DNA of 64,000 bases from contig JANRKA010000111.1 of assembly GCA_033875325.1 (NCBI GenBank), positions 249 to 64,248 on the forward strand. The letters run 5' to 3'. Both the position numbers and the translations under genes were made by a program. Numbering within the stretch: position 1 is the stretch's first letter; each line of letters begins with the position of its first letter. Below the pieces are notes generated by a model. It worked only from the letters and a program-made list of their open reading frames with translations, did not search any database and was not told the origin of the DNA. Positions 10,875-23,533 of the stretch are shown here, piece after piece. Source of the stretch: Elusimicrobiota bacterium (GTDB taxonomy: Bacteria > Elusimicrobiota > Elusimicrobia > UBA1565 > UBA9628).

Positions 10875-11536
10875 CGGGCAGACAGCGTCAAGTCCGCGTA
10901 CCAGGCCTCGGCCGTCCCGCGGGTGTCGTCGGCGTCGGTCATGACGGCGATGCCGGCGTAGGGCGGGGGCTCCTCGCCGAAGAGCCGCCGGTAATCGGCC
11001 AACACGTCGCGTTCTTCCGCGCGCCAGCTTCCGGCCTCCCCGTCGCCCGAGCGCACGGCGACCATCATGACGCGGTCGGAGTAGGCGTTGGGCACGGAGC
11101 GTCCCGCGTCGAGCTTGTTGGCCCAGATGTAGTTGATGGCCGCGTGCGGGGGGTATTCGCCGCGCAGCCGCTTGGCCAAGCCGTATTTGAAACGCATGCC
11201 GGCGCTCGCGCGGGCCGGGTCGTAGATGAAAGCCACGTAGACGCGCGCCGCGTAGTCGTCGCCCGACTTGCGGCGCTCGTCGCCTTCGGGCAAAGTCCCG
11301 GCGACCTTCCAGCGCCAACGCAGCACGGGCGTCTCGGCGACGGGCCGCTTGAAGCGGACGATGAGCCCGGAAGCCGACGCGTCGGCTTTGGCGTGCAGCG
11401 CGCGCTCGACGGGCGACCACTCGTAGGCGGTCGTCGCGCGTTTGGCGAAGGACAACGGCTCCCAGCCCGAGGGCAGGCCCGCCGGGCCCAGGAGGGGGGC
11501 CGAGGAGAGCAGGACGGTCAGGACGGCCGCGTGCAT
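10871..11536 (-). CDS. DUF3047-like secreted protein
   Basis: Signal-like N-terminus. Blocks WRWKV...DDYAARVYVAF...INYIWAN...AVMTDADDT resemble DUF3047 as I recall it. The stop overlaps the convergent gene stop (CTAG). Confidence 0.55.
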   Translation of the reverse strand: MHAAVLTVLLSSAPLLGPAGLPSGWEPLSFAKRATTAYEWSPVERALHAKADASASGLIVRFKRPVAETPVLRWRWKVAGTLPEGDERRKSGDDYAARVYVAFIYDPARASAGMRFKYGLAKRLRGEYPPHAAINYIWANKLDAGRSVPNAYSDRVMMVAVRSGDGEAGSWRAEERDVLADYRRLFGEEPPPYAGIAVMTDADDTRGTAEAWYADLTLSAR

Positions 11537-11570
11537 GGGCGAGAAGTTAGCATTCTCCTGCGCGCGGGTG

Positions 11571-11579
11571 TGCTATCGT
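11571..11579 (+). promoter_or_regulatory. Extended -10-like element TGcTATCGT, 6 nt upstream of the caspase-like gene ATG
   Basis: tgctatcgt 11571-11579; ATG 11586. The divergent partner TGcTAACTT is on the minus strand at 11552-11544, 7 nt from ATG 11536. Confidence 0.35.
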
Positions 11580-11585
11580 AATTTC

Positions 11586-13583
11586 ATGCGAATTCAATCC
11601 GTGGCCGTCATCCTGGCTGTGGCGGGGACCTTGCCGTGCGCAGCGGCGCGGCACGAGGCGCGCATGCTCGGCGAGCAGCCGGGGCAGCCTACTTTGGGCG
11701 CCTCGGCGATGTACCGAGAATCGGCGACGAGCATCGTCGTCTGGCGGCTGCCGGACGGCGAGCAGGTGGCCTTCTACCCGCGGCCGCGTCCCGCCAAAGG
11801 ACACCGCGCGGCCGGGTTCGTCGCGGCGGGCTTGCCGACCGGACAGCGGCGGTTGCTCGCGTGGACATTCGACGAGAGCCTTTCCACGGGCACGCCGCGT
11901 TCCATGCTGGCGCGGCTGCACGCGTTCGAGGCGCCGGGCGAAGAACCCGGTCGAGAGCTCTTCGCGACGCGCTTGGACGCGACGCTTCATGAAGCGGTCA
12001 ATCTCGTCCGAGCCGAGTATTCGCCGGGTGAGCGCCGCGCCGTGGTGCGGATCAAGTCGCCCGACCATGTCCGCAAGTCCTACGCCTTCCATCGCTTGAC
12101 GGTGGACCTGGAGGCGGGACGCGTCGAGGTCGCCTCGGCGACCTACGCGATGGACGCGCGTCACCACGCCGGTTACGCCTACGCATACGACGCTGAGGAC
12201 CCCATCCCGCACAGCGACCACGCCGAGGTCAAGATCGACGACGACGGCCGTCTCATCGCGCTGGAGTACGAGAACGACACGGCGATGACGGTTGACGCGC
12301 GTACCGGCAAGCGCATCGCCTTGCTTCAGGGCGTGCCCGCGAAATCCTATCGAGGAACCTGGCTCGACGGGCCCGGACACGCCTTCGAGCTCTCTGACGC
12401 GGACGCGGGGCGCGTCCGATTGATGATCTGGGATGCGATGACGGGCCGCAAGAACGTGGAGCGAGTCTTGCCCGACTCGGTCTTGAAGCAGGGCTTGGAG
12501 TTCGCGCCGCGCAAGGCGCTGTTCCTGGAGCGGGCGTCGTCTGACAGCGTTCGGGTCTGGGATCTCGCTTCGCAGGACGAGCCCGCCACCATAGGGCCCT
12601 TGTCGGAGGTGGACCGATGGGGTGGCTTCGTCCCGGGTCACGGTCGTCAGGCGCAGCTTTCAGACGACGGCTCCTATCTGGTCTATCGCTCGAGCGGGCG
12701 CTACCGCGTGGCGTCGATCGACCCGCCCATCACGCCATCGTATTCGCCCGCGGGGCATGCGTCGTCCGTGGCCGCGCTCGTCAACGTGGATGACCCGCCC
12801 GTGACGCGTACTCCTCGGGCCCCGGATGCCTATGCGGTGGTCATCGGTGTGTCGAAGTACAGGTCGAACGGCATCCCGCCGGTCTCCGACGCGCTCCGTG
12901 ACGCGCGGGCCGTGTACGCGACCTTGACGCGCTCCATGGGTTTCGACGCAGCCAACACGCTCCTACTGCTCGATGGGCAGGCCGGCCGGGCCGACCTCGA
13001 CAAGAGCCTGGGTCCGTGGCTGCGCAACCGTGTCGGGCCGCGCTCGCGCGTCTTCGTCTATTTCTCCGGTCACGGCGCGCCCAATCCCGTCTCAGGCGAG
13101 GGCTACCTCATGCCCTTCGACGGAGACCCCAACTACCTCGCCGAGACCGCTTATCCGCTGACCCGCCTCTACGCCGAGCTCGCGGCCTTGCCCACGCGAG
13201 AGGTCACCGTCGTGCTCGATTCCTGCTTCTCGGGACGCGGCGACAGATCTCTTCTGGCCGCCGGCGCCAGGCCTCTGGTCGTCTCCAAGCCGCAGGCGGC
13301 GGGCGACAATACCGTCGTCATCTCGGCCTCCGCCTCGACCCAGATCAGCTTATCGCACCGGCGCGCCCGTCATGGGCTGCTCACCTATCATCTGCTGGAG
13401 GGCTTGCGCGGTCCGGCCGACGCCGATGGGGACGGCCAGGTCACGGCGGCGGAAGCGTTCGGCTACGCGCGGCCGGCCGTTGAACGCGAAGCCCGGCTGC
13501 AGAACGCCGAGCAGACGCCGGTAGCGTCGCCTTCCCAGGAGAGGTTGGCGGCGACCGCTCCCTGGGTGCTGCTCAAAAAATAG
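11586..13583 (+). CDS. Exported caspase-family (peptidase C14) protein with N-terminal WD40-like beta-propeller region and C-terminal EF-hand-like loop
   Basis: Signal peptide MRIQSVAVILAVAGTLPCAAA. Blade-like segments (VRVWDL, MIWDAMTGR, LSDDGSYLVY). Catalytic dyad contexts YFSGHGAP and VVLDSCFSG. DADGDGQVTAAE matches a 12-residue EF-hand loop. Confidence 0.8.
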   Translation: MRIQSVAVILAVAGTLPCAAARHEARMLGEQPGQPTLGASAMYRESATSIVVWRLPDGEQVAFYPRPRPAKGHRAAGFVAAGLPTGQRRLLAWTFDESLSTGTPRSMLARLHAFEAPGEEPGRELFATRLDATLHEAVNLVRAEYSPGERRAVVRIKSPDHVRKSYAFHRLTVDLEAGRVEVASATYAMDARHHAGYAYAYDAEDPIPHSDHAEVKIDDDGRLIALEYENDTAMTVDARTGKRIALLQGVPAKSYRGTWLDGPGHAFELSDADAGRVRLMIWDAMTGRKNVERVLPDSVLKQGLEFAPRKALFLERASSDSVRVWDLASQDEPATIGPLSEVDRWGGFVPGHGRQAQLSDDGSYLVYRSSGRYRVASIDPPITPSYSPAGHASSVAALVNVDDPPVTRTPRAPDAYAVVIGVSKYRSNGIPPVSDALRDARAVYATLTRSMGFDAANTLLLLDGQAGRADLDKSLGPWLRNRVGPRSRVFVYFSGHGAPNPVSGEGYLMPFDGDPNYLAETAYPLTRLYAELAALPTREVTVVLDSCFSGRGDRSLLAAGARPLVVSKPQAAGDNTVVISASASTQISLSHRRARHGLLTYHLLEGLRGPADADGDGQVTAAEAFGYARPAVEREARLQNAEQTPVASPSQERLAATAPWVLLKK

Positions 13584-13590
13584 GCGGCGT

Positions 13591-14367
13591 TCACAGCCGA
13601 GGCGACTGGGGCTCGCCGGAGCGCCCGAGGCGCGCGTCGGAGCGGACGGGCTCGACGGGCGCGGTCGCGGCGTCTCCCGGAGCGCGCAAGAGCAGCAGCA
13701 GCGGGTCCTCGGCGCCGGCGGCTTCGGCAAGGACCTTCGCCTCTTCCGGCGTGACGGCGAGCTGCACGCTGGCCCATTCCTCCTCGCTGCGGGCCTGGTC
13801 GCGCCCGAGCACGAGCGCGTCCTGGACGGCGACGCGCGCCACGAGCTCCTCCTTGGCGCCTTTGGCGCCGGCGCGGGTGAGCACCGCGTCCACGCGTTGG
13901 CCCGGGGACAGGAACTCGACCTGGTCCGGGTGCGCGACGACGGCGGCGCCGACTCGTCCCGGTCCGAGAGCGGCGGGCGAGGCGGCGCGCGCCCGCGACA
14001 GGGCGGCGCGCGGCCGCGCGAGCTCGTGGAGCAGCAGCTTCCTCTCCAGGTCGAGCGCGAGAGCGACCCACTGCGCCTGGGCGGGGGTCAAGGCGACCTG
14101 GACGAGCGCGTTCTCCTTCGACCAGGCGGCGTCCACGCGCAGGACCTCGGCGTCCGGCGCCACGGACTCCGAGCGAGGGTCCGGCGCGCCGTCCGGCCGC
14201 GTGCCGTCCGTCAGCACGACGAGCTCGACCGTGTCGCCGGGCTGGAGGTAGCGCGCTTGTCCGGGCGCGACGGGAACGGTCACGCCGCGTTTGCCCGCGG
14301 GCGGGGCGTACCCGGGCCCCGCGGGAGAGCAGGAGGCGAGCGCGGCGACCAGGAGGAGGCGGCGCAT
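13591..14367 (-). CDS. Lipoprotein with two tandem RcpC/CpaB-like beta-clip repeats
   Basis: ATG 14367 shares one base with the SprA-like stop (TGATG). Lipobox LVAALASC. Two repeats share the pattern L-PGD-V-(L/A)V...DA-VL...V-LA(L/V)TP--A--(V/L)A-A...L-L-L typical of the RcpC C-terminal domain. Confidence 0.6.
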   Translation of the reverse strand: MRRLLLVAALASCSPAGPGYAPPAGKRGVTVPVAPGQARYLQPGDTVELVVLTDGTRPDGAPDPRSESVAPDAEVLRVDAAWSKENALVQVALTPAQAQWVALALDLERKLLLHELARPRAALSRARAASPAALGPGRVGAAVVAHPDQVEFLSPGQRVDAVLTRAGAKGAKEELVARVAVQDALVLGRDQARSEEEWASVQLAVTPEEAKVLAEAAGAEDPLLLLLRAPGDAATAPVEPVRSDARLGRSGEPQSPRL

Positions 14368-17300
14368 CAGAATTGGAAGGTGAGGGTCGTGCCGAACTGA
14401 TAGGACACGAAGTCCTCCTCCTTGAGAAATTTGTGCCACAGGCGCTGCATCGAGCCGTTGAGGGTCATGCGCAGGTTCTTGGCGATCTCGTAGTCGCCGC
14501 TGGTGTTGAAGGAGAAGAGGCGCGAGTTGTCGGCGACGGTCACCGGCGAGCGGCGCATCGCCATGGACAAGGTCGAGGTCCAGATGATGCGGTTGGTGAA
14601 CAGCAGGGGTTTGGCCGAGCCGGGCAGGCGCAGGCCCGCCGGCAGGGCCAGGTCGGCGCGGGCCAGCACGCTGGGCGTGATGACCTCGACGTCCTGGGTC
14701 TTCACGCCGGTGCCGAGCTGGTTGGAGTCCTTGGAGTAGTCGGTCTTGGGCGTGAGGCGGAACTTGCCCAGGTCGAAGGTGACCTGGACGGTGGCGTCCT
14801 CGTGTTTGGTGAGCTGGGTGTTGGCGTCCACGCGCAGGTCCTTGTTGTCGGTGCGGCGGCGGTTGTAGCTGATGAGGGTGTCGTAGCGCTTCCACGCGAT
14901 GGTGCGCAGGTCGGTGCCGAAGCTGTCCTCGGTGTTGAAAGTGGAGCCCACGTTCTCGACGGTGCGGCGCGCGAACTTGAAGTTCATCTGGGCGTTCGAC
15001 AGGAAACGCTCCGCGAACCAGAGCTGCTCGAGCTGCGCCAGGCTGATGACGGCGTCAGGCAGAGTGCGCGAGACGGTCTTCGACTGCGTGCCCGTCACCT
15101 CGGACTTCTGGACGCTGAGCACGTAGTTGTTGGACAGCGACAGCGTCTTGAAGGACGCCAGGCGCCCGCGGATGTCGTAGGCCTCCAGCGGCGACCAGCG
15201 CTGGGTCGAGCTCCAGGTGTCGCGCACCGTGAGGTTGGCTCGCTGCGCCGCGGGGTTGTTCGGGCGCAGCGGCGAGCGCACCCACAATGCGGTCTTGGTG
15301 TCGAGGTCCTTCTCCACCTGGTTCCAGACGTCGCCGTCCTGCAGCTGGTAGCCGGAGACGATGTTCATCGAGCGCAGCAGCTTCACGCGCTGGGTGATGT
15401 CGCCGATGGTCAGCGGCAGGGAGATGGAGCCGTTGGCCGAGCGGTTGACCGTCTTGATGTCGCCGACCTGGAAGACGTAGGTGGAGGTGCGCACCACGAA
15501 GGTCGAGATGTTGAGGATGTTGTTCTCGATGGTGTCCACCTGGTAGTTGACCTGCGGGTTGAGCCAGCGGGTGAGGCGGAAGTTCGACGAGAAGCCCGCG
15601 CTCTGGTTGAAGGACTTCGGGTAGCGCGAGCTGACCGGCAGGCCGGTCTGGAACTCGGTACGGTTCTCGGTCACCTTGGTCATGCTCCAGGTCGGGTTGA
15701 ACGAGGACGCCGTCCAGGGCTGGAAGGTCAGGCGCAGGCCGTAGCTGTTGGTCCGCTCCTCGGTGTTGAAGTTGCCGGGCAGAGCGCGCACGTCCGGGCG
15801 CTCGAAGCTGACGTCATAGCGGATGTGGCCGGCGGTGGCGTCCACGGTTTTGGGCAGGAAGCGGCTGTCCCACGGCACGCCGTACTGGAGCGTGCCGTTG
15901 AAGGTCTTGCGGTCGTCCAAACGGGTGAGCAGGTCGTATTCGATGCGGTTGCGCGTGTGCGACATGGAGAGGCGGGGGTAGGCGCCGTAGGCGACGTTGC
16001 CCTGGGCGCTGCCCGTCCAGGTCGTGACCTTGCCCTGCTGGAGCAGGTTCACGAGGTTGGACAGCTGCCCGGTCTGGACCGTGCTCGGCGTGTCGGTCAC
16101 CGTGCGCTGCAGGTTGAAGGTCATGGGGAACCAGGAGAGCCGCGTCCAGTTGAGGTAGGCGGAGTCGTCGCGGCGGTCCTGGTTGGAGACCACCGAGGTC
16201 GGCGTCTGGAAGTTCTTGTCCACGAAGCGGTGTTTGGCCCCGAAGGTCGCCCAACCGGGCACCTCGAAGTCGGCCGACAGTTTCTGCGCGTTGCCGACGC
16301 GCGTCACCGGCTCGGCCACGTGGATCTCGTTGAGGAAGATGGTGCCGCAGGCCGTGGTGTTGGGCGTGCAGTTGTTGTCCGTCACGGGGCCGGTCACCCG
16401 CACGCCGGCGTAGAGAGCGCCGACCTGCTGGAGCGTGGGCGCGCCGCTGGTCACGACCACGGTGCCCGGCGTCGCGGACTTCCAGACGTCGGCCACGGAG
16501 TCGGAGTTCACGTCGCTCTGCTCGATGCGAATCTTCTGCCAGCCGGTGGAGCCCAGGGGCACCTGCACCTCGAAGAAGTCGCGGTCGGAGCCGGCGCGCA
16601 GGAAGAAGACGGCGTTCGTGCTGATGGCGACTCCCGTGCCGCCGCTCGTGTTGAGCAGGAAGTTGAAGTATTTGTGCTGGCTGATGTCCACGGCGCGCGA
16701 GAACACGCGCTTGGTGTGCACGGTCGCGCTGCTCGTCATGCCGTCGAAACGCAGCTGCAGGGCCTGCTCGGACAGGTTCTTGGAGTTGGCCTGCTTCTGC
16801 AGGTTGCTCAGGCTGCCGTAGAGGTCGTTGAAGACGGAGGCCGCGTCGCCGCCGGCGTTGTAGATGGGCGTGTAGGTGGGGTTGTCCACGCTGTTGACGG
16901 GCGTGACGACGAGCGCCTCGCTCGCGACCGGCAGCGCGGTGCTCGACGGGTCGCCGGCCGCTCCGCGCAGCCAGGTGTTGCCGACGACGGCGATGCGCGC
17001 GAACTTCACGCCACCGGCGGCCGCGCCGCCGGCCGGCCGGCGGATGGTCACGCGCAGCTGCTTGACCGCCGTCCAGGCCGACGCGGTGCCCGACGAGATG
17101 TTGAGCGGTATCTGCAGCGTGTGCCAGCCGGTGTTCGCCCCGGTCGGGCCGAAGTCGATGGCCGTGCGCGTGCTGGAGGTCGTCGCGTCGAAGAGTTTGT
17201 CGGCCGTCGCGGAGGTGCAGTTGGCCCCGCCGGTGCGGCAGGCGAAGCCGAAGCTGCCGCCGGTGAAGTCCAACGGGTCGAGCTTGCCGTTGCGGTTCAA

Positions 17301-19991
17301 GTCCTCGGCGTCGAGAAGGCCGTTGCCGGCCGTATAGTTCTTCGACGCCTTGCCGGCGGGGTTGTAGGTGAAGCCGATGTCCTCGGCCGGCTGGAGGATG
17401 TTGTCGTTGTTGGCGTCCTCCGTGTCGAGCGCGCCGTCGGCATCGGCGTCCTCGGCGATGCCGCCGAGGTGGAAGTTGATCTCGTTGTTGGAGGCGTCGC
17501 CGAGCATCACGACCTCGAGGATGGTGCGCTGCGACATGTCCACGCCCGCCACGGCGAAGGGATAAACGATGGAGACCTGGTCGGTGGAGTTGGCCACCGA
17601 GAAGTCGTAGTTGAAGTTGAGGACCTTCTGCGTCTCCTGGCTGTTGGCCTGGGCGTTGGGGTTGATCTTCAGCAGCTCGACGTCCTCGTTGACCAGGCTG
17701 AACTGGTTGGGGTCGGCGGGCACGCCGCCCATGGTGCCGACCGTGGGATTGGCCGCGACCTGCCACTGCGAGAGGATGAGGGAGGCGGAGTCCTCCTGCT
17801 TGAGGCCTTCCATGTTGTCGATGAGGGCGAAGGGGTTGAGGTTGAGGTTCTGTCGGCTCTGGGCGAACTCGCCGGCCAAAGAGACGATGAGGCGATCGCC
17901 CAGCTTCAGGCGCTGCACCTTGGCGTCGAACTCGTAGACGACGAGGCTGCGGGCCAGCTCGGTGATCTGGGGGACCGTCGGGGACTTCGAGCCCGCCTGG
18001 TAGAGCAAGGTGGTGCCCACGGAGGCGACCTCGTTGAAGTCGTGCGAGACGCGCGCGCCGAGGAGGGAGTCGTTGCCCGTCGCGCCGGCGAAGGGCGCGA
18101 CCTCGTAGGTCATGTCGATGACGGAGTTCGGGCCGATGCGGTCGGGGTTGAAGAAGGTGATGAAGCCCGCCTCGTAGTCGATGAAGTAGTCGACGTTGCG
18201 GTTGAGCTTCTGGTTGTCGAGCAGCACGATCTCGGACTGCACCACGAGGTTGGGCTCGAGGAAGAAGGTCTTGAACCGGAAGTTGTACTCCACGCGGAAC
18301 AGGCGCTTGTGGATGGGCGTGGGCGCGTACACGTCGGGGTCGGGCGTCGTCGGCGAGGTGTTGGAGACCGAGAAGGGCTGCAGGAGGCGGAACACGCCGT
18401 TCTCGAAGTCCACCTCGATGGAGTCGGGATATTTCTGGACGGGGTTGAGGCCGGAGCCCACCTCGTCGCGGTTCTGGTCGAGCACGCGCAGGATGAAGTT
18501 GCCGCGGCCGTTGTCGCGCACGATCTGGTTCTGCCCGATGGAGTAGAAGGTGAGCAGCTCGCGGTTCCAGCCGGCCTCGGTGCCGCTGGAGACGATGGGC
18601 AGCTCCGAGGCCGTCTTCATGATCTTGAAGCGGTCGGGACGGGCGGGGTTGGAGGCCAGCGTCGTCGTCGAGGTCTGGAAGGCCAGGCGGTTGCCGTTGG
18701 CGTCCTCGTAGTCGATGGCGACGACGTACTGCGCCAGCAGCTGCGTGCGGAACTGGACGATGCCCTTGGCGTAGTCGATGGTGTAGTCCTGGCCCGCGAT
18801 CTGCGGCAGGAACCGGCCCGTGAAGGAGGAGGAGTTGACGCAGTTGGCGCCCACGCAGACGAGGTCGTCCACGGTGAGGGTCTGCTCGTTGACGTTGGGC
18901 AGGCCGGGGTCCTGGCGGGCGAGGAAGATGCGCTCGGTGCCGGACTTGATGGGCAGGCGCGCGTTCACGCCGAAGGCCACGTCGTAGTACTGGCGCCGGA
19001 GGTAGGAGGTGTCGAGGATGTCGGTCGTGACGAACTGGGTGTTGCCGCTGAACTGGCGCGACTTGGTCGTGCCCTTGGTGCGCGAGCCGATGAAGGTCGC
19101 CTTGAAGCCTTTGTACTTGATGTCGGCCCGGATGCCGAAGAGCTGTTTGTTGTAGGACACGAACTCGGTGGCGGGCAGCGACAGGTCGATGTCGCCGAAG
19201 GAGACGTTCTGCACCACCTCGTTGGGGTCGCCCTGATAGACGACGGAGATGTCCTGCTGGTTCTCCTTGGTGTCGTCGTAGTCCACGTTGACCGTGATCT
19301 TGGGGCCGACCTTGCCCTGCATGCGCAGCTGCAGCTGCTGGTCGATCTCGACGAGGTTGGTCGTCGCGGGGCGGCCGGTCGTCTTCTGGGCGGCGAGGAA
19401 GCGCTTCTCGGAGAAGTTGAACCCGATGACCTTGCGGCCCGTGACGGAGAGGCTGGTGCCGTAGGTGGGCAGCTCGACTTCGGGCGGCGGCGGCTTGGCC
19501 GCGGCCGTGGAGAGATCGAGGTCCTCGATGGCGATGGGGCGCCCGTCCGGGCCGGCCACGCGCTCCTCCCAGGGCTCCTCGCCGCGGTCCACCGCGTCGC
19601 GCACGCGCCGGAAGCGGTCGGCGTCGTATTCGACGGGCTTGAGTCCTTCACGGACTTGGCGCGGGTCGCGCGGAGCGCGAGAGGGCGCCGTCGAGACCGT
19701 GGGCGGCGGGGCGCCGAAGAAGCCGCCGGCGCCCCGGTCGTAGAGTTTGAAGTCGGACGCTTTGGGCGCGCCGAGCGGCTTATAACCGGGCACGGACTCG
19801 GGCGCGGCGTCCGGAGAGACGGCCGGTGCGGGAGCGGGCGCGGGCGCCGGAGCGGGAGCCGGCGCAGGCGTCGTCGGCGCGAAATCCGGGTCGTACGGCG
19901 TCTCGAACTGGGGCGACGCGGGCGCGGCGAAGCCCGCCAAGAGGGCGAGGAGAAGGGCGCCGACGCGGGTTCGTGAGCGTTGCAGGAGCAA
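14367..19991 (-). CDS. sprA: SprA/Sov-family-like giant outer-membrane beta-barrel protein (T9SS translocon family), 1874 aa
   Basis: Signal peptide (TTG start 19991), (PA)7 linker, C-terminal ...TLTFQF aromatic OMP terminus. Blocks DQQLQLRMQGKVGPKITVNVDYDDT, VQNVSFGDIDLSLP and QLFGIRADIKYKGFKATFIGSRTKGTTKSRQFSG resemble conserved N-terminal SprA blocks as I recall them. Ca-binding-like DxDxDG / EDLNRNGKLD loops. Confidence 0.7.
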   Translation of the reverse strand: MLLQRSRTRVGALLLALLAGFAAPASPQFETPYDPDFAPTTPAPAPAPAPAPAPAPAVSPDAAPESVPGYKPLGAPKASDFKLYDRGAGGFFGAPPPTVSTAPSRAPRDPRQVREGLKPVEYDADRFRRVRDAVDRGEEPWEERVAGPDGRPIAIEDLDLSTAAAKPPPPEVELPTYGTSLSVTGRKVIGFNFSEKRFLAAQKTTGRPATTNLVEIDQQLQLRMQGKVGPKITVNVDYDDTKENQQDISVVYQGDPNEVVQNVSFGDIDLSLPATEFVSYNKQLFGIRADIKYKGFKATFIGSRTKGTTKSRQFSGNTQFVTTDILDTSYLRRQYYDVAFGVNARLPIKSGTERIFLARQDPGLPNVNEQTLTVDDLVCVGANCVNSSSFTGRFLPQIAGQDYTIDYAKGIVQFRTQLLAQYVVAIDYEDANGNRLAFQTSTTTLASNPARPDRFKIMKTASELPIVSSGTEAGWNRELLTFYSIGQNQIVRDNGRGNFILRVLDQNRDEVGSGLNPVQKYPDSIEVDFENGVFRLLQPFSVSNTSPTTPDPDVYAPTPIHKRLFRVEYNFRFKTFFLEPNLVVQSEIVLLDNQKLNRNVDYFIDYEAGFITFFNPDRIGPNSVIDMTYEVAPFAGATGNDSLLGARVSHDFNEVASVGTTLLYQAGSKSPTVPQITELARSLVVYEFDAKVQRLKLGDRLIVSLAGEFAQSRQNLNLNPFALIDNMEGLKQEDSASLILSQWQVAANPTVGTMGGVPADPNQFSLVNEDVELLKINPNAQANSQETQKVLNFNYDFSVANSTDQVSIVYPFAVAGVDMSQRTILEVVMLGDASNNEINFHLGGIAEDADADGALDTEDANNDNILQPAEDIGFTYNPAGKASKNYTAGNGLLDAEDLNRNGKLDPLDFTGGSFGFACRTGGANCTSATADKLFDATTSSTRTAIDFGPTGANTGWHTLQIPLNISSGTASAWTAVKQLRVTIRRPAGGAAAGGVKFARIAVVGNTWLRGAAGDPSSTALPVASEALVVTPVNSVDNPTYTPIYNAGGDAASVFNDLYGSLSNLQKQANSKNLSEQALQLRFDGMTSSATVHTKRVFSRAVDISQHKYFNFLLNTSGGTGVAISTNAVFFLRAGSDRDFFEVQVPLGSTGWQKIRIEQSDVNSDSVADVWKSATPGTVVVTSGAPTLQQVGALYAGVRVTGPVTDNNCTPNTTACGTIFLNEIHVAEPVTRVGNAQKLSADFEVPGWATFGAKHRFVDKNFQTPTSVVSNQDRRDDSAYLNWTRLSWFPMTFNLQRTVTDTPSTVQTGQLSNLVNLLQQGKVTTWTGSAQGNVAYGAYPRLSMSHTRNRIEYDLLTRLDDRKTFNGTLQYGVPWDSRFLPKTVDATAGHIRYDVSFERPDVRALPGNFNTEERTNSYGLRLTFQPWTASSFNPTWSMTKVTENRTEFQTGLPVSSRYPKSFNQSAGFSSNFRLTRWLNPQVNYQVDTIENNILNISTFVVRTSTYVFQVGDIKTVNRSANGSISLPLTIGDITQRVKLLRSMNIVSGYQLQDGDVWNQVEKDLDTKTALWVRSPLRPNNPAAQRANLTVRDTWSSTQRWSPLEAYDIRGRLASFKTLSLSNNYVLSVQKSEVTGTQSKTVSRTLPDAVISLAQLEQLWFAERFLSNAQMNFKFARRTVENVGSTFNTEDSFGTDLRTIAWKRYDTLISYNRRRTDNKDLRVDANTQLTKHEDATVQVTFDLGKFRLTPKTDYSKDSNQLGTGVKTQDVEVITPSVLARADLALPAGLRLPGSAKPLLFTNRIIWTSTLSMAMRRSPVTVADNSRLFSFNTSGDYEIAKNLRMTLNGSMQRLWHKFLKEEDFVSYQFGTTLTFQF

Positions 19992-20149
19992 GATGCCGTC
20001 GTCCCGCCCTTCCCCGAAAAAAAAGGGAAGCGCCCGCGGATAAGGTCGGCGTTCCTTATACGCGCGCGCGAGACGCCCGGGAGTATAGCGGGGCCGTGTT
20101 ACGGCGTCAAGTCATGCCTCCGGACGCGAGCGCCCCGAGGCCTTCGCGG

Positions 20150-20416
20150 CTAGATCCCGATGGAGGCGAGGAGGCGGGAGGCGCGGTCGAGGTAGGCGGT
20201 GAGGGTCGGGTGGGAGGCTTCGAGGCCGACCGCGCTGCTCTCCAGGGCGGTGATGAGGTCGTCGAGCGGGCCGTGGTCCTCGGCGCGGATGCCCGCTTTG
20301 AGCTGCCGCAGCGACGCGATGACCTGCGCCTTCTTGGCGGGGTCGGAGGCGTGTCCGTCTTTGATCGCCGCTTCGATGGAGGTGATGAGGCGTTCCAGCT
20401 CTTTTTTATCGGCCAT
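20150..20416 (-). CDS. Small helical protein, DUF4404-like
   Basis: 88 aa, MADKKELERLITSIEAAIKDG...LLASIGI. Clean promoter immediately upstream. The longer track ORF (to 20893) runs into the amine oxidase gene region. Confidence 0.5.
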   Translation of the reverse strand: MADKKELERLITSIEAAIKDGHASDPAKKAQVIASLRQLKAGIRAEDHGPLDDLITALESSAVGLEASHPTLTAYLDRASRLLASIGI

Positions 20417-20422
20417 GGGGGT

Positions 20423-20451
20423 GTTATAGCCTCGTTTCGGGTTCCCGTCAA
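20423..20451 (-). promoter_or_regulatory. Sigma70-like promoter TTGACG-17-TATAAC, only 6 nt from the ATG (leaderless-type)
   Basis: Minus strand: TTGACG 20451-20446, 17-nt spacer, TATAAC 20428-20423, ATG 20416. Confidence 0.45.
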
Positions 20452-20498
20452 GCGGTGGCGGAGCAACGCTCCGACCTGACGAGATAATCCTTTTTATT

Positions 20499-22427
20499 TC
20501 AGCGGATATCCAGGGCCGGGTTGCGGTGGAAGAACCCGCTGGGCAGGAGCTGGAACCCGGTTTTGTGCGTGGGCATGACCGGCCAGTCCTCGGGTCGCGG
20601 GATGTGGGTGACCCCGAAGGTGTACCAGAGCACCACGTCCTCGCCGTCCAACGCCCGGTCGGCCTTCTGCCAGGCGGGCAGGCCCTGGTCCGCGGCGCCC
20701 TGGTTGGGGTAGCGGCCCGCGGCGTAGAGCTCGGCATCGTCGTGGCGCGTGACCCACAGGTGGTGCTCGATGAAGCGGCCTTTGCGGCGCACCGGGGAGT
20801 CCTCGAGCAGGTAGGGACGGCTGTTCTCGCCCGGGATGAGGACGAAGCCCGTGGGCTCGCCCAGCGCGTTTTTCGCGGTGGACGACAACACACGCCACTT
20901 GCGCGCCTTGGACAGGTCCATGTCGCGGCGCGCGGCGCTCTCGCGGGCGATGACGGTCTCGCGCATGACGATGGCGTTGGACAGCGGGTTGGCCTTGCCC
21001 TTGGGCGCGGAGAACACCTCGTGCTCGACGACGCGGTTGGCGGGGCCGTCCACGTCGAAGTCGAGCCGGAAGTTGAAGAAGTGCTGGTGGTGCGGGGCGG
21101 CCACGCCCGGCGCCACGAGGTGGGCGTGGTGGGCCGCGTGGTCGGCGCCGAGCTCCGACGCGGTCGCCGCTTTCACGCCTTTGGCGAGCATGATGCCGGT
21201 CAGGCCCGACTCCATGAGGAGCGCGCCGTCCTGCTTGAACACCCAGGAGAGCTGGTAGTCGTAGTTGGAGATGGTCGCCACGAAGGTCATCACCAGCTCG
21301 CGCCCGCGGCGCGACTCGGAGCGGCCGTTGATCATGTCGAGGTGCTTCCAGAGGATGCCGCCGTCGCGCTCGTAGAAGGCCACGGCCCGCTCGGCCTTGT
21401 AGGACTTGCCGAGGTCGTCGGCGAAGGTCGCGTCGCGGTACACGGCGTTGGCCGGCGCGTCGGCGCCGGGCACGAGCGGCCCGGCCATGCGGCCGATGCC
21501 GTATTCACCCTCGTCGAAGGCGTTGCGGAACGACCAGTTCGAGTCGGGGTCGCCGTAGGGCACGAGCATCTCGGAGAGCGAGGCGCGGTAGAGCACGGGG
21601 CGCACGACGCCGCCGTCCTCGAAGCCGACCTGGTAGAGGACCGGGCCCTCGCGCGGGTGCAGCGCCCAGCGGAAGCGCCAGCCCTGCCAGCGGACCTCGT
21701 GGCCGTCGAGCGTGAAGGAGGGGCCGTCCGGCTGGGAGACGACCAGCGGGCGCAGCCCCGGCCGAGCGGCCGGGACCGCGGACGGGTCGAAGTCGCCGGG
21801 CGCCGTCGAGACGGCGACGACGCCGGTGTCGATGAATTCCACGACCGCGCGTTTGTTGGCGTCGATGACAGCGACCACGCCTTCGACGGGATGGGCGTAG
21901 GCGTTGGTGTTGCCCTCCGTGGCGTAGGAGAGTCCGCGCAGCAGACGGGCGCCGGACTTCGCCTCGGCCGCCGACGTCGGACCGGGCGCCCACAGGTCCA
22001 CCCAGACCGCGTCCGGCTTCAAGCCGCGTTTCTCCATCGCGGCGCGCCAGCGCGGGTCGGCCTTCACCACGGCGGGGAACTTCTCGAACTCCTCGAGCAT
22101 GACGTTGGGCTGGGCGCCGGGGCGCGGGGTCCAGGAGGCGAGGGCCTTCGTCTCGAGGTCCACGACGGCCTCCGCCGTCTCGTTCTTGGCCCGGTCATAA
22201 ACGGTCACGAAGGCGCGGCGAGGGAACGGCCGGCCGGGCTTCCAGGCGAGGACCTCCTTCTTGGCGGGCTCATCGAGCGTGACGACGGGGAAGAACACGC
22301 CCTCCGGCAGGTCCTTGGCGGCGCGCACGGCCGCGACGGCGGCGGGCACCTCGTCGGCGTCGAGCGGGTCGAGGGGATGGACGGCGGCGGCGGCGACGGA
22401 GGCGAGCAGGAGGGCGAGGGCGTTCAT
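20499..22427 (-). CDS. Copper-containing primary amine oxidase (TPQ enzyme), periplasmic
   Basis: Signal peptide MNALALLLASVAAAA. TPQ consensus TISNYDY. Copper His ligands in HHQHFFNFRLD. ATGA overlap with the upstream GT4 gene. Confidence 0.9.
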   Translation of the reverse strand: MNALALLLASVAAAAVHPLDPLDADEVPAAVAAVRAAKDLPEGVFFPVVTLDEPAKKEVLAWKPGRPFPRRAFVTVYDRAKNETAEAVVDLETKALASWTPRPGAQPNVMLEEFEKFPAVVKADPRWRAAMEKRGLKPDAVWVDLWAPGPTSAAEAKSGARLLRGLSYATEGNTNAYAHPVEGVVAVIDANKRAVVEFIDTGVVAVSTAPGDFDPSAVPAARPGLRPLVVSQPDGPSFTLDGHEVRWQGWRFRWALHPREGPVLYQVGFEDGGVVRPVLYRASLSEMLVPYGDPDSNWSFRNAFDEGEYGIGRMAGPLVPGADAPANAVYRDATFADDLGKSYKAERAVAFYERDGGILWKHLDMINGRSESRRGRELVMTFVATISNYDYQLSWVFKQDGALLMESGLTGIMLAKGVKAATASELGADHAAHHAHLVAPGVAAPHHQHFFNFRLDFDVDGPANRVVEHEVFSAPKGKANPLSNAIVMRETVIARESAARRDMDLSKARKWRVLSSTAKNALGEPTGFVLIPGENSRPYLLEDSPVRRKGRFIEHHLWVTRHDDAELYAAGRYPNQGAADQGLPAWQKADRALDGEDVVLWYTFGVTHIPRPEDWPVMPTHKTGFQLLPSGFFHRNPALDIR

Positions 22428-23533
22428 GGGGCTCCAAGGACGGCGCGATAGGTCTCTTCGTATTCGGCGATCATGCGGCGCAGGGTGAACTTCTCGGCGA
22501 CGACGGCCGCGGCGGCGGGGCCGAGCCGGCCGCGCAGCGCGAAGTCGGTGACGAGCCGGCGCAGCGCGGCGCCCAGCGCCTTCGGGTCGTCGGGCGGGAC
22601 CAGCAGGCCGCTTTTCTCGTGCTCGACGGCCTCGGGCACGCCGTCCACGGCGGAGGCCACCACCGGCAGGCCCAGCGCCATGGCCTCGAGCAGGGCGTTG
22701 GGCAGCCCCTCCCAACGCGAGGGCAGGCAATACACGTCGAAAGCGGAGAGCCAGGACGGCACGTCGGCCCGCTCGCCCAGCAGCCAGACCGACTTCTCGA
22801 GCTGGTGTTTGCGCACCAGCCCCTCGAGTTTGCCGCGCGCCGGGCCTTCGCCCAGGATGACGCACTTGATGGGGAAACTCTTGAGGCCGGCCATCGCCTC
22901 GATGAGCGTGTCGAAGCCTTTCTGGTCGTCGAGCCGACCGACCGCGCCGACGAGGAGGTCGTTGGCGCCCAGGCGCAGCTCGAGGCGGTGTTTGGCGCGG
23001 TCCACCTTGGAGGCGGGCCAGCCCGCGGTCTCGATGCCGTTGCGGATGACCTTGACCCGCTCCCGCGAGTAACCCTGCCGCTTGACCAGGAAGTCGGCGC
23101 TGGCCTGGCATTCGGCGATGAGCAGGTCGTCGCGGTCCTTCTGCCAGCGGTCGATGGCCAAGGTCAAGGTCGAGCGCGTGCGGTAGTTGACGCGCGGCGA
23201 GCTCACGAGCTTGAAGGCGACGGAGGCCTGGGTTTTGGCCATGCGCGCGACCTGGATGGCGGAGAACATCAGGGCGTGCACGACGTCGGGGCGCTCGCGG
23301 TCGATGATGGCGGCCAAGGTCTTGGCGTCGCGCGGACGCGGGGAGGCCGCGCCGAGGGACTCCACCTTCACGCCCGCCTCGCGCAGGCGCCGGCCGTATT
23401 CGCCCTCGGGCTTGAGGCTGACGACCCCGGCCACCGTGAACGCCTTGTGGTCGAGCAAGGTCGCCAGGTTGAACAGCGTCTTCTCCGCGCCGCCGACCGT
23501 GGTGGAGGTCGAGACGAAGAGGACGCGGCTCAC
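22424..23533 (-). CDS. Glycosyltransferase family 4 (GT-B)
   Basis: MSRVLFVSTSTTVGGAEK N-terminus, C-terminal E-x7-E-like region PSRWEGLPNALLEAMALGLPVV. GTG start in a GTGA overlap with the aminotransferase stop. Confidence 0.85.
   Translation of the reverse strand: MSRVLFVSTSTTVGGAEKTLFNLATLLDHKAFTVAGVVSLKPEGEYGRRLREAGVKVESLGAASPRPRDAKTLAAIIDRERPDVVHALMFSAIQVARMAKTQASVAFKLVSSPRVNYRTRSTLTLAIDRWQKDRDDLLIAECQASADFLVKRQGYSRERVKVIRNGIETAGWPASKVDRAKHRLELRLGANDLLVGAVGRLDDQKGFDTLIEAMAGLKSFPIKCVILGEGPARGKLEGLVRKHQLEKSVWLLGERADVPSWLSAFDVYCLPSRWEGLPNALLEAMALGLPVVASAVDGVPEAVEHEKSGLLVPPDDPKALGAALRRLVTDFALRGRLGPAAAAVVAEKFTLRRMIAEYEETYRAVLGAP

Follow-up and report, generated by a model that had tools for sequence, protein, structure and literature searches.

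We analysed 64,000 nucleotides of contig JANRKA010000111.1 from an Elusimicrobiota bacterium (this whole stretch, with a G+C content of about 70%, is called the window below), and two overlapping genes on its minus strand are considered here. The first encodes a large secreted protein, hereafter the barrel, and the second encodes a lipoprotein with RcpC domains. The barrel belongs to a shorter (about 1.85 thousand amino acids, kaa), divergent subfamily of SprA/Sov, the T9SS (type IX secretion system) outer-membrane translocon; its identity is secure, and its function is what we infer. An original prediction, made from the DNA letters, had regarded the two genes as a possible T9SS-like translocon pair. 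The features of the pair are as follows (aa, amino acids):

14367..19991, minus strand: SprA-superfamily outer-membrane beta-barrel gene, 1874 aa (TIGR04189, hhalign, AlphaFold2 (AF2)/Foldseek)
Layout of the barrel: signal peptide, PYDPDF, (PA)8/Pro-rich linker, SprA_N-like block at about 170-340, Asp-rich Ca-type loops at about 845-905, C-terminal barrel ending in TFQF
19821..19868, minus strand: (Pro-Ala)8 run inside the Pro-rich linker (sequence and family consensus)
14365..14369, minus strand: TGATG stop/start overlap coupling both genes (read from the sequence; gap of 1-8 nt in relatives)
13591..14367, minus strand: lipoprotein gene with lipobox Cys13, two tandem RcpC beta-clip domains and a conserved disordered tail (Pfam, AF2, Foldseek, 14-homologue alignment)

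The TGA stop codon of the barrel gene overlapped the ATG of the lipoprotein gene as TGATG (14369..14365, minus strand), exactly where the original prediction had placed it, and on this reading of the sequence the two genes are translationally coupled.

The barrel protein and its relation to SprA

The large gene (19991..14367, minus strand) was read from a TTG start into a secreted beta-barrel protein of 1874 aa. The G+C fractions at its three codon positions (GC1/2/3) were 0.59/0.45/0.96 and its translation was protein-like, which identified it as a real gene. Because GC3 of the barrel gene reached 96%, a plus-strand open reading frame (ORF) of 1867 codons (14373..19976) was also open across the whole gene; this ORF was rejected as a high-GC, GC3-driven shadow, and it could mislead gene callers.

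The N-terminus of the barrel, MLLQRSRTRVGALLLALLAGFAAPASPQF, was signal-peptide-like and agreed with the family consensus, as had been predicted. It was followed by a PYDPDF motif that is invariant in the family (D34, P35, D36 and F37 were without variation), and between this motif and the barrel domain lay a low-complexity Pro-rich linker, variable in the family consensus. The Pro-Ala run inside the linker, thought at first to have seven repeats, was found to have eight and to occupy residues 42-57 (window 19821-19868). The predicted Ca-binding-like, Asp-rich loops were recovered as DADADG (residue 848) and DLNRNG (residue 897), and the block holding both of them was conserved family-wide and also in more distant SprA-family proteins. 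The C-terminus TFQF, with the terminal Phe expected of an outer-membrane protein, was invariant both in a set of 26 homologues and in a set of 96. Mean column identity in the family alignment was 59%. The protein contained six cysteines in all, arranged as three close pairs at residues 379/384, 918/925 and 1208/1215 (CX4C, CX6C and CX6C), which may form disulfide-closed loops.

When the barrel was compared with the NCBIfam model TIGR04189 (T9SS translocon Sov/SprA), a significant match was obtained in 4 stretches (E=2.6e-47, 160.9 bits). SprA was not found among PDB sequences by direct phmmer of the barrel, nor by a profile of the close barrel family (A1), and the sequence link to SprA therefore needed a profile of 14 intermediate relatives (A3). 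This intermediate profile matched Flavobacterium johnsoniae SprA (6h3i_A) with E=9e-77 over SprA residues 153-1894, and hhalign joined A1 to A3 with a probability of 100% and E=4e-164 over 1535 aligned columns (A1 positions 167-1841). An exhaustive search of representative sequences with the N-terminal 1200 aa of the barrel as query gave 1048 relatives, 667 of them at E<=1e-10 and many of them 1.9-2.2 kaa long; three of the four distant relatives tested lay above the TIGR04189 cutoff (P0230 with 268.8, P0247 with 265.3 and P0262 with 216.6 bits). The Pfam domain SprA_N (PF14349) was matched by 6 of the 26 close homologues, with a best E of 1.2e-7.

The predicted fold led to the same family. 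In the AF2 model of residues 675-1874, nearly everything was built of long beta-strands, with a mean predicted local distance difference test (pLDDT) score of 84.8. The only strong PDB matches of this model in Foldseek were four SprA chains, 8GL8_A (1.4e-37), 8GL6_A (5.2e-37), 6H3I_A (9.7e-33) and 6H3J_A (6.2e-30), with template-modelling (TM) scores (TMq) of 0.51-0.54. The next match had E=4e-5; TonB-dependent transporters, SlpA and LptD followed at about 1e-4 or weaker, the LptD chains at E=5e-4 to 1e-3 with TM of about 0.15. Judged from the profile comparisons and the model, we regard it as established that the barrel is homologous to SprA over essentially the whole mature chain and that the model of residues 675-1874 has the giant SprA-type fold. 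The proposal that the large protein is SprA-like was thus borne out by hidden Markov model (HMM), profile-profile and fold comparisons, the relationship being real but divergent. Orthology to the T9SS Sov/SprA translocon is not established, because the score falls below the cutoff, the chain is shorter and Pfam finds no SprA_N, and the protein should accordingly not be filed as an orthologous Sov/SprA.

The other components of type IX secretion were searched for by Pfam and NCBIfam scans. No GldK/L/M/N, PorV or C-terminal-domain (CTD)-type protein was found in about 50 scanned ORFs of the 64-kb window, in agreement with the original prediction, and no cargo with a T9SS C-terminal sorting domain (TIGR04183/PF18962) was found among the window ORFs scanned. 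Likewise, the T9SS families PorK/L/M/N, PorV, PorU, PorZ, SprE and SprT were found neither in the window nor in the Pfam tables of 12 relatives' loci. The barrel could still be an ordinary T9SS translocon, with GldKLMN, PorV, PorU, other components and CTD cargo encoded elsewhere in the genome. Its significant SprA homology and fold are in line with such a role, and T9SS genes, sprA of Bacteroidota included, are commonly scattered around the genome. We nevertheless consider it distinctly improbable, given the negative searches just described and a barrel that scores below the curated equivalog cutoff and is about 500 aa shorter. Furthermore, literature searches found no paper linking SprA or T9SS with Elusimicrobia, and T9SS is described as unique to the Fibrobacteres-Chlorobi-Bacteroidetes (FCB) superphylum (PMC12421860), of which the host phylum is not a member. 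Elusimicrobiota are also described as non-motile (PMC11257099).

The RcpC lipoprotein and the distribution of the pair

The second gene (14367..13591, minus strand) encodes a lipoprotein of 258 aa with the lipobox LASC and an invariant Cys13. The Pfam domain RcpC (PF16976) was matched in two stretches (E=1.1e-14, 54.8 bits against a gathering score of 28.8), and the two halves of the protein were 40% identical to each other (E=7e-10). The AF2 model (pLDDT 85, predicted TM score (pTM) 0.82) consisted of two repeated beta-rich modules and a disordered C-terminal tail (pLDDT below 50); in an alignment of 14 homologues this tail (PVEP...RLG..GEP.SPRL) was nevertheless conserved. In Foldseek the top matches were the two RcpC chains of the Tad pilus alignment complex, 9gzr_A/B (E=4.5e-5 and 1.1e-4, probability 1.0), and the matches below 1e-3 were RcpC chains only. 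The internal RcpC duplication read from the letters alone was in this way recovered by domain, repeat and fold.

Both NCBI and JGI name the lipoprotein family 'RcpC/CpaB family pilus assembly protein'. It scored 49.3 bits against a cutoff of 71 for the CpaB equivalog TIGR03177, no SAF domain was found in it by Pfam, and no genes of a tad/cpa locus (secretin, TadZ/A/B/C) were found in the 64-kb window. A role as a Tad-pilus part was rejected on these grounds, together with the lipobox and the place beside the barrel gene that it had in all loci examined. The database label also enters a wider explanation, in which the barrel would be a giant outer-membrane protein with a passive or structural role (for instance as a major porin, or in tethering the envelope like SlpA of Deinococcus) and the lipoprotein an unrelated neighbour or a piece of a Tad pilus. 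SlpA-type giant barrels did occur among the weak fold matches of the barrel (E of about 1e-4), but the SprA match was more than 30 orders of magnitude better, and the lipoprotein, with its failed CpaB cutoff, its lipobox in place of the usual membrane anchor, no SAF by Pfam, no tad genes in the window and its constant place beside the barrel gene, fits poorly on the other side as well. This explanation appears to us very doubtful.

A scan of one genome per GTDB species gave 174 barrel loci, and the facts on GTDB loci reported here rest on 80 of these 174. All 80 belonged to Elusimicrobia or to metagenome-assembled genomes (MAGs) of an unclassified 'bacterium' placed within the same family tree. 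The named barrel homologues were likewise all from Elusimicrobia/Elusimicrobiota MAGs, and every one was labelled 'hypothetical protein'. No host from the FCB superphylum was met among the named homologues and these 80 loci. The nearest relative (locus L001) carried a 92% identical barrel on a 3.1-Mb contig. Neighbouring genes were mapped on a tree of 79 barrel sequences, and two clades were distinguished:

Clade A, 44-58% identity to the window protein: lptG-lptF (divergent, usually <500 bp away), barrel, ComF-like gene
Clade B (the window's clade), up to 92% identity: Bac_transf-DegT-GT4, barrel, then RcpC lipoprotein, DUF3047 or ComF

Of about 80 GTDB loci, 13 had the lipoprotein gene, and each of the 13 belonged to one part of clade B or lay near it. 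Wherever it was located in relatives (L003, L089 and L090 included), it lay on the same strand, 1-8 nt past the barrel gene; in L089 and L090 it began 5-8 nt past a gene for 1859-1870 aa. A profile search with the lipoprotein gave 144 clusters, every named one from Elusimicrobia, and 26 of the 144 were on contigs of the same exact size as the contig of a barrel homologue. Since the gene is absent from many close relatives, the lipoprotein is dispensable and any gating role non-essential. On the sequence comparisons, a lipoprotein implies a barrel and a barrel does not imply a lipoprotein, which makes it a dedicated but dispensable accessory. The pair as a family-wide unit was rejected, most of the family having a ComF-like phosphoribosyltransferase, DUF3047 or a Pro-rich protein downstream and not RcpC; of the suggested pair, the tight coupling of the two genes was supported, and the lipoprotein is limited to one subclade. 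The two outcomes that the original prediction had named as telling against it, namely the lack of a significant SprA HMM match and a lipoprotein that is not conserved beside the barrel gene and has no RcpC fold, were not what we found.

Some details of individual loci were also recorded. In L001 (15274-16060) the lipoprotein frame appeared broken near its 3' end, and the public call over it was a 185-aa ORF on the opposite strand, owing to which the lipoprotein is unannotated there. In L089 (9839-10732) and L090 (9842-10720), an ORF of 292-297 aa without Pfam match followed about 25 nt past the lipoprotein gene on the same strand; it has no counterpart in the window and may be a third operon member in these lineages.

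Genomic context and proposed function

Upstream of the barrel gene, divergent lptF/lptG genes were found in about 32 of the 35 clade-A GTDB loci. They were also found no more than 1.5 kb away (median 147 bp) in 42 of the 49 metagenome loci with enough upstream DNA, these loci representing the 1.7-1.9-kaa barrel subfamily at a GC of 28-68%. Among loci L021-L080 (GTDB clade A), L085 and L104-L170 this synteny was seen almost always, and a ComF-like gene (DZR_2 + Pribosyltran) was often present downstream of the barrel in such loci. The barrel of L085, a distant intermediate of 2196 aa above the SprA cutoff, was flanked by divergent lptG-lptF-PMT on one side and followed by ComF on the other. Judged from these gene orders, the lptF/lptG association goes further back than the subfamily and reaches L085-type relatives.

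In clade B, an initiating sugar transferase, an aminotransferase and a GT4 glycosyltransferase (Bac_transf-DegT-GT4) stood directly upstream of the barrel on the same strand, and a barrel relative in a Spirochaetia MAG lay downstream of a Wzy_C gene and a heptosyltransferase gene. On this comparison of loci, the window's clade has lost the lptF/lptG arrangement and has O-antigen-type glycan genes in its place. The strongest signal of context, which the original prediction had not noticed, is a phylum-wide Elusimicrobiota gene beside lptF/lptG or, in the window's clade, beside O-antigen-type genes. Such synteny suggests a link of the barrel to the cell surface covered by lipopolysaccharide (LPS) and glycan.

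A separate SprA-like subfamily of at least 2.0 kaa, with N-terminal fn3 domains and scores above the TIGR04189 cutoff, was seen in L086, L087, L088, L091-L094, L100, L101 and L150. Immediately after each of these genes came one for another large protein containing fn3 (975-1843 aa), which makes a different candidate for a partner, and one of the hosts was labelled a Spirochaetia MAG.

In the window itself, positions 20499-64000 (about 44 kb) formed one large surface-glycan biosynthesis island. It contained two NeuB + cytidylyltransferase (CMP-transferase) fusions (nonulosonic acids), a WbuX amidotransferase with HisH/HisF-like genes, a LIC12162-type transferase, many glycosyltransferases, TylF-type and other methyltransferases, two B12-radical SAM enzymes, a PhyH dioxygenase, a TPP enzyme and an MsbA/PglK-like ABC exporter. 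In the window and L001 only, two inserted genes (20150-22451, minus strand), one for a copper amine oxidase and a small one for DUF4404, parted the GT4 gene from the barrel gene; in the other clade-B loci the GT4 gene was about 150-230 bp from the barrel gene. Two signals were located upstream of the barrel start codon:

20082..20110, minus strand: sigma-70-like promoter match TTGACG-17-TATACT upstream of the barrel gene (10/12 consensus positions; consensus match only)
20018..20069, minus strand: stable, GC-rich, terminator-like hairpin and then a U8 run, in the gap from the DUF4404 gene to the barrel start (RNA fold)

Two promoter-like sites were found against 0.2 expected in shuffles. The hairpin had a folding energy of -30.3 kcal/mol (z=-3.27), and none of 200 shuffles folded as well; it separates the barrel/lipoprotein pair from the upstream glycan genes. 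The hairpin thus stands between the promoter-like site and the barrel start codon, and the promoter match may be due to chance, or else the hairpin is a leader or attenuator. On the other side of the pair, a convergent gene ended 8 nt past the lipoprotein stop. With the promoter-like site and hairpin upstream and the convergent gene downstream, the pair therefore looks like its own bicistronic unit. The convergent gene (11442-13583, plus strand) encodes a protein of 713 aa that has a caspase domain at its C-terminal end (Pfam C14; in NCBIfam the EACC1-associated caspase type, at a score under the cutoff). It was missing from L001, the relative with 92% identity, in which DUF3047 comes directly next, and by this comparison it looks like a recent insertion.

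The conserved neighbours raise another explanation, in which the barrel would export LPS or a surface glycan, either as the outer-membrane end of the Lpt pathway (an LptD substitute) or as exporter of the O-antigen-like glycan of the upstream cluster, the lipoprotein being an LptE-like plug in some lineages. Divergent lptF/lptG are the most conserved neighbour of the barrel, in the window's clade its gene follows the three glycan genes on the same strand, and the Spirochaetia-MAG relative sits after Wzy_C and a heptosyltransferase; its phylum-wide occurrence in species representatives together with its strong conservation would also fit an envelope-biogenesis factor. A 2024 study reported LptD, BamBCD and FadL to be absent from all Endomicrobiaceae, with most genera keeping key LPS synthesis genes (PMC11257099), but this published absence covers that one family. 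The barrel itself showed no OstA/LptD_N (PF03968), LptD (PF04453) or other Pfam domain at E<=1, its LptD fold match reached only E of about 5e-4 with TM 0.15 as compared with 1e-37 for SprA, and the sole characterised member of the SprA family moves proteins. In the window, moreover, the terminator-like hairpin parts the barrel gene from the glycan cluster, and no lptFG were found there. Weighing these points, we hold export of LPS or glycan by the barrel to be unlikely. The more specific proposal, that the SprA-type barrel is the outer-membrane terminus of LPS/glycan export in Elusimicrobiota, back-to-back with lptF/lptG in most of the family and with the RcpC lipoprotein as an LptE-like plug in one subclade, seems rather improbable; if it were true, SprA-type barrels would have had a role in envelope biogenesis outside, and possibly before, the T9SS.

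The reading that we favour, and still put forward tentatively, is that of an outer-membrane translocon of the SprA type which is independent of the T9SS and probably connected with the assembly of the LPS/glycan-covered surface, with the RcpC lipoprotein as a subclade-specific periplasmic collar, gate or adaptor. Barrel and lipoprotein would be made from a two-gene operon of the Elusimicrobiota bacterium. The barrel would be exported by Sec and, by homology with SprA, would form an outer-membrane channel that is very wide, capped and filled with water. The cargo passing the outer membrane through it would be large and periplasmic, most likely surface or secreted proteins in their folded state, and its passage would do without the canonical motor and ring of the T9SS, for which no gene lies nearby. 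The lipoprotein would be anchored in the outer membrane and dock at the periplasmic mouth of the barrel (a putative topology, as is any stoichiometry of the two), perhaps via its conserved disordered C-terminal tail. In the Tad system the secretin is encircled by RcpC, and SprA is accompanied by Plug, PorV and SprE; by analogy with both, the lipoprotein is probably such a collar, gate or adaptor, and it is a lineage-specific accessory and not a core part. The job of the channel would be tied to building the LPS- and glycan-covered cell surface. Of all this, the analysis shows the homology, the fold, the coupling and co-occurrence of the two genes and the synteny.

Several observations weigh against this favoured reading. 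The 160.9 bits of the barrel are below the curated 200-bit cutoff of TIGR04189, the window barrel has no Pfam match at E<=1 and so no SprA_N (PF14349), and the AF2 model, made from a 96-sequence alignment, spans the C-terminal 1200 residues (675-1874) only. The negative result for T9SS genes covers the window and the relatives' loci, not the rest of the genome, and no cargo, energiser or partner of the barrel was identified. The synteny with lptFG and glycan genes agrees no less well with LPS or glycan as the substrate than with protein. Finally, the lipoprotein is missing from the equally close loci L009, L010, L012, L013 and L035.

The SprA-superfamily barrel is conserved across a phylum other than Bacteroidota/FCB, in which T9SS and SprA/Sov are treated as a hallmark. 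What is new here is a divergent, shorter SprA subfamily in a phylum without a described T9SS, its RcpC-type lipoprotein partner and a previously unreported lptF/lptG synteny. This subfamily is unannotated in databases and has no visible T9SS partners, a dedicated lipoprotein in one clade and a deep lptF/lptG synteny. It opens the question of how a SprA-type giant channel functions without the GldLM/PorKN machinery, and also that of how Elusimicrobiota, of which one family is reported to lack LptD, finish LPS export. The finding of a barrel-linked RcpC lipoprotein moreover corrects the database name of that family, the Tad pilus assembly protein.

Comparison with known systems

RcpC/CpaB of the Tad/Flp pilus (PDB 9GZR; PF16976; TIGR03177) has the RcpC beta-clip domain in common with the lipoprotein, both by sequence and by fold, and in the Tad system it is the periplasmic partner of a large outer-membrane channel. 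The lipoprotein differs in having two RcpC domains, no SAF by Pfam, a lipoprotein signal where a membrane anchor is usual and a C-terminal tail that is disordered and conserved, and its gene stands beside a SprA-like barrel without secretin or tad genes. The likeness to the SprA partners of the extended translocon (PDB 6H3J and 8GL8), namely Plug, PorV and the lipoprotein SprE/PorW, is one of concept only: these small proteins bind to the SprA barrel and either gate its periplasmic or lateral openings or connect them, and the RcpC lipoprotein was not found to be related to them in sequence or fold, Foldseek giving RcpC matches only.

The LptD-LptE plug-and-barrel translocon of LPS resembles the pair as a large outer-membrane barrel with a small outer-membrane lipoprotein, and also through the lptF/G association in most of the barrel family. 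However, the barrel has no LptD/OstA domain and only a weak, generic barrel similarity to LptD, while the RcpC lipoprotein does not resemble LptE, and many lineages dispense with it.

The closest system is the T9SS outer-membrane translocon, SprA of Flavobacterium johnsoniae or Sov of Porphyromonas gingivalis (PDB 6H3I, 6H3J, 8GL6 and 8GL8; TIGR04189; PF14349). It shares with the barrel the N-terminal conserved block VGPKITVNVDYDD...FGDI.L.LP.TEF..YNKQLFG, the Asp-rich Ca-type loops and the giant-barrel fold in the C-terminal 1200 aa. The barrel is about 530 aa shorter than SprA (1874 against 2403 aa), a difference already expected in the original prediction, and its host, an Elusimicrobiota bacterium outside the FCB superphylum, has no T9SS partner genes nearby. 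In contrast to SprA/Sov, the barrel family has lptF/G, ComF or O-antigen-type genes as its conserved neighbours, and it carries its own invariant N-terminal PYDPDF motif followed by the Pro-rich linker.

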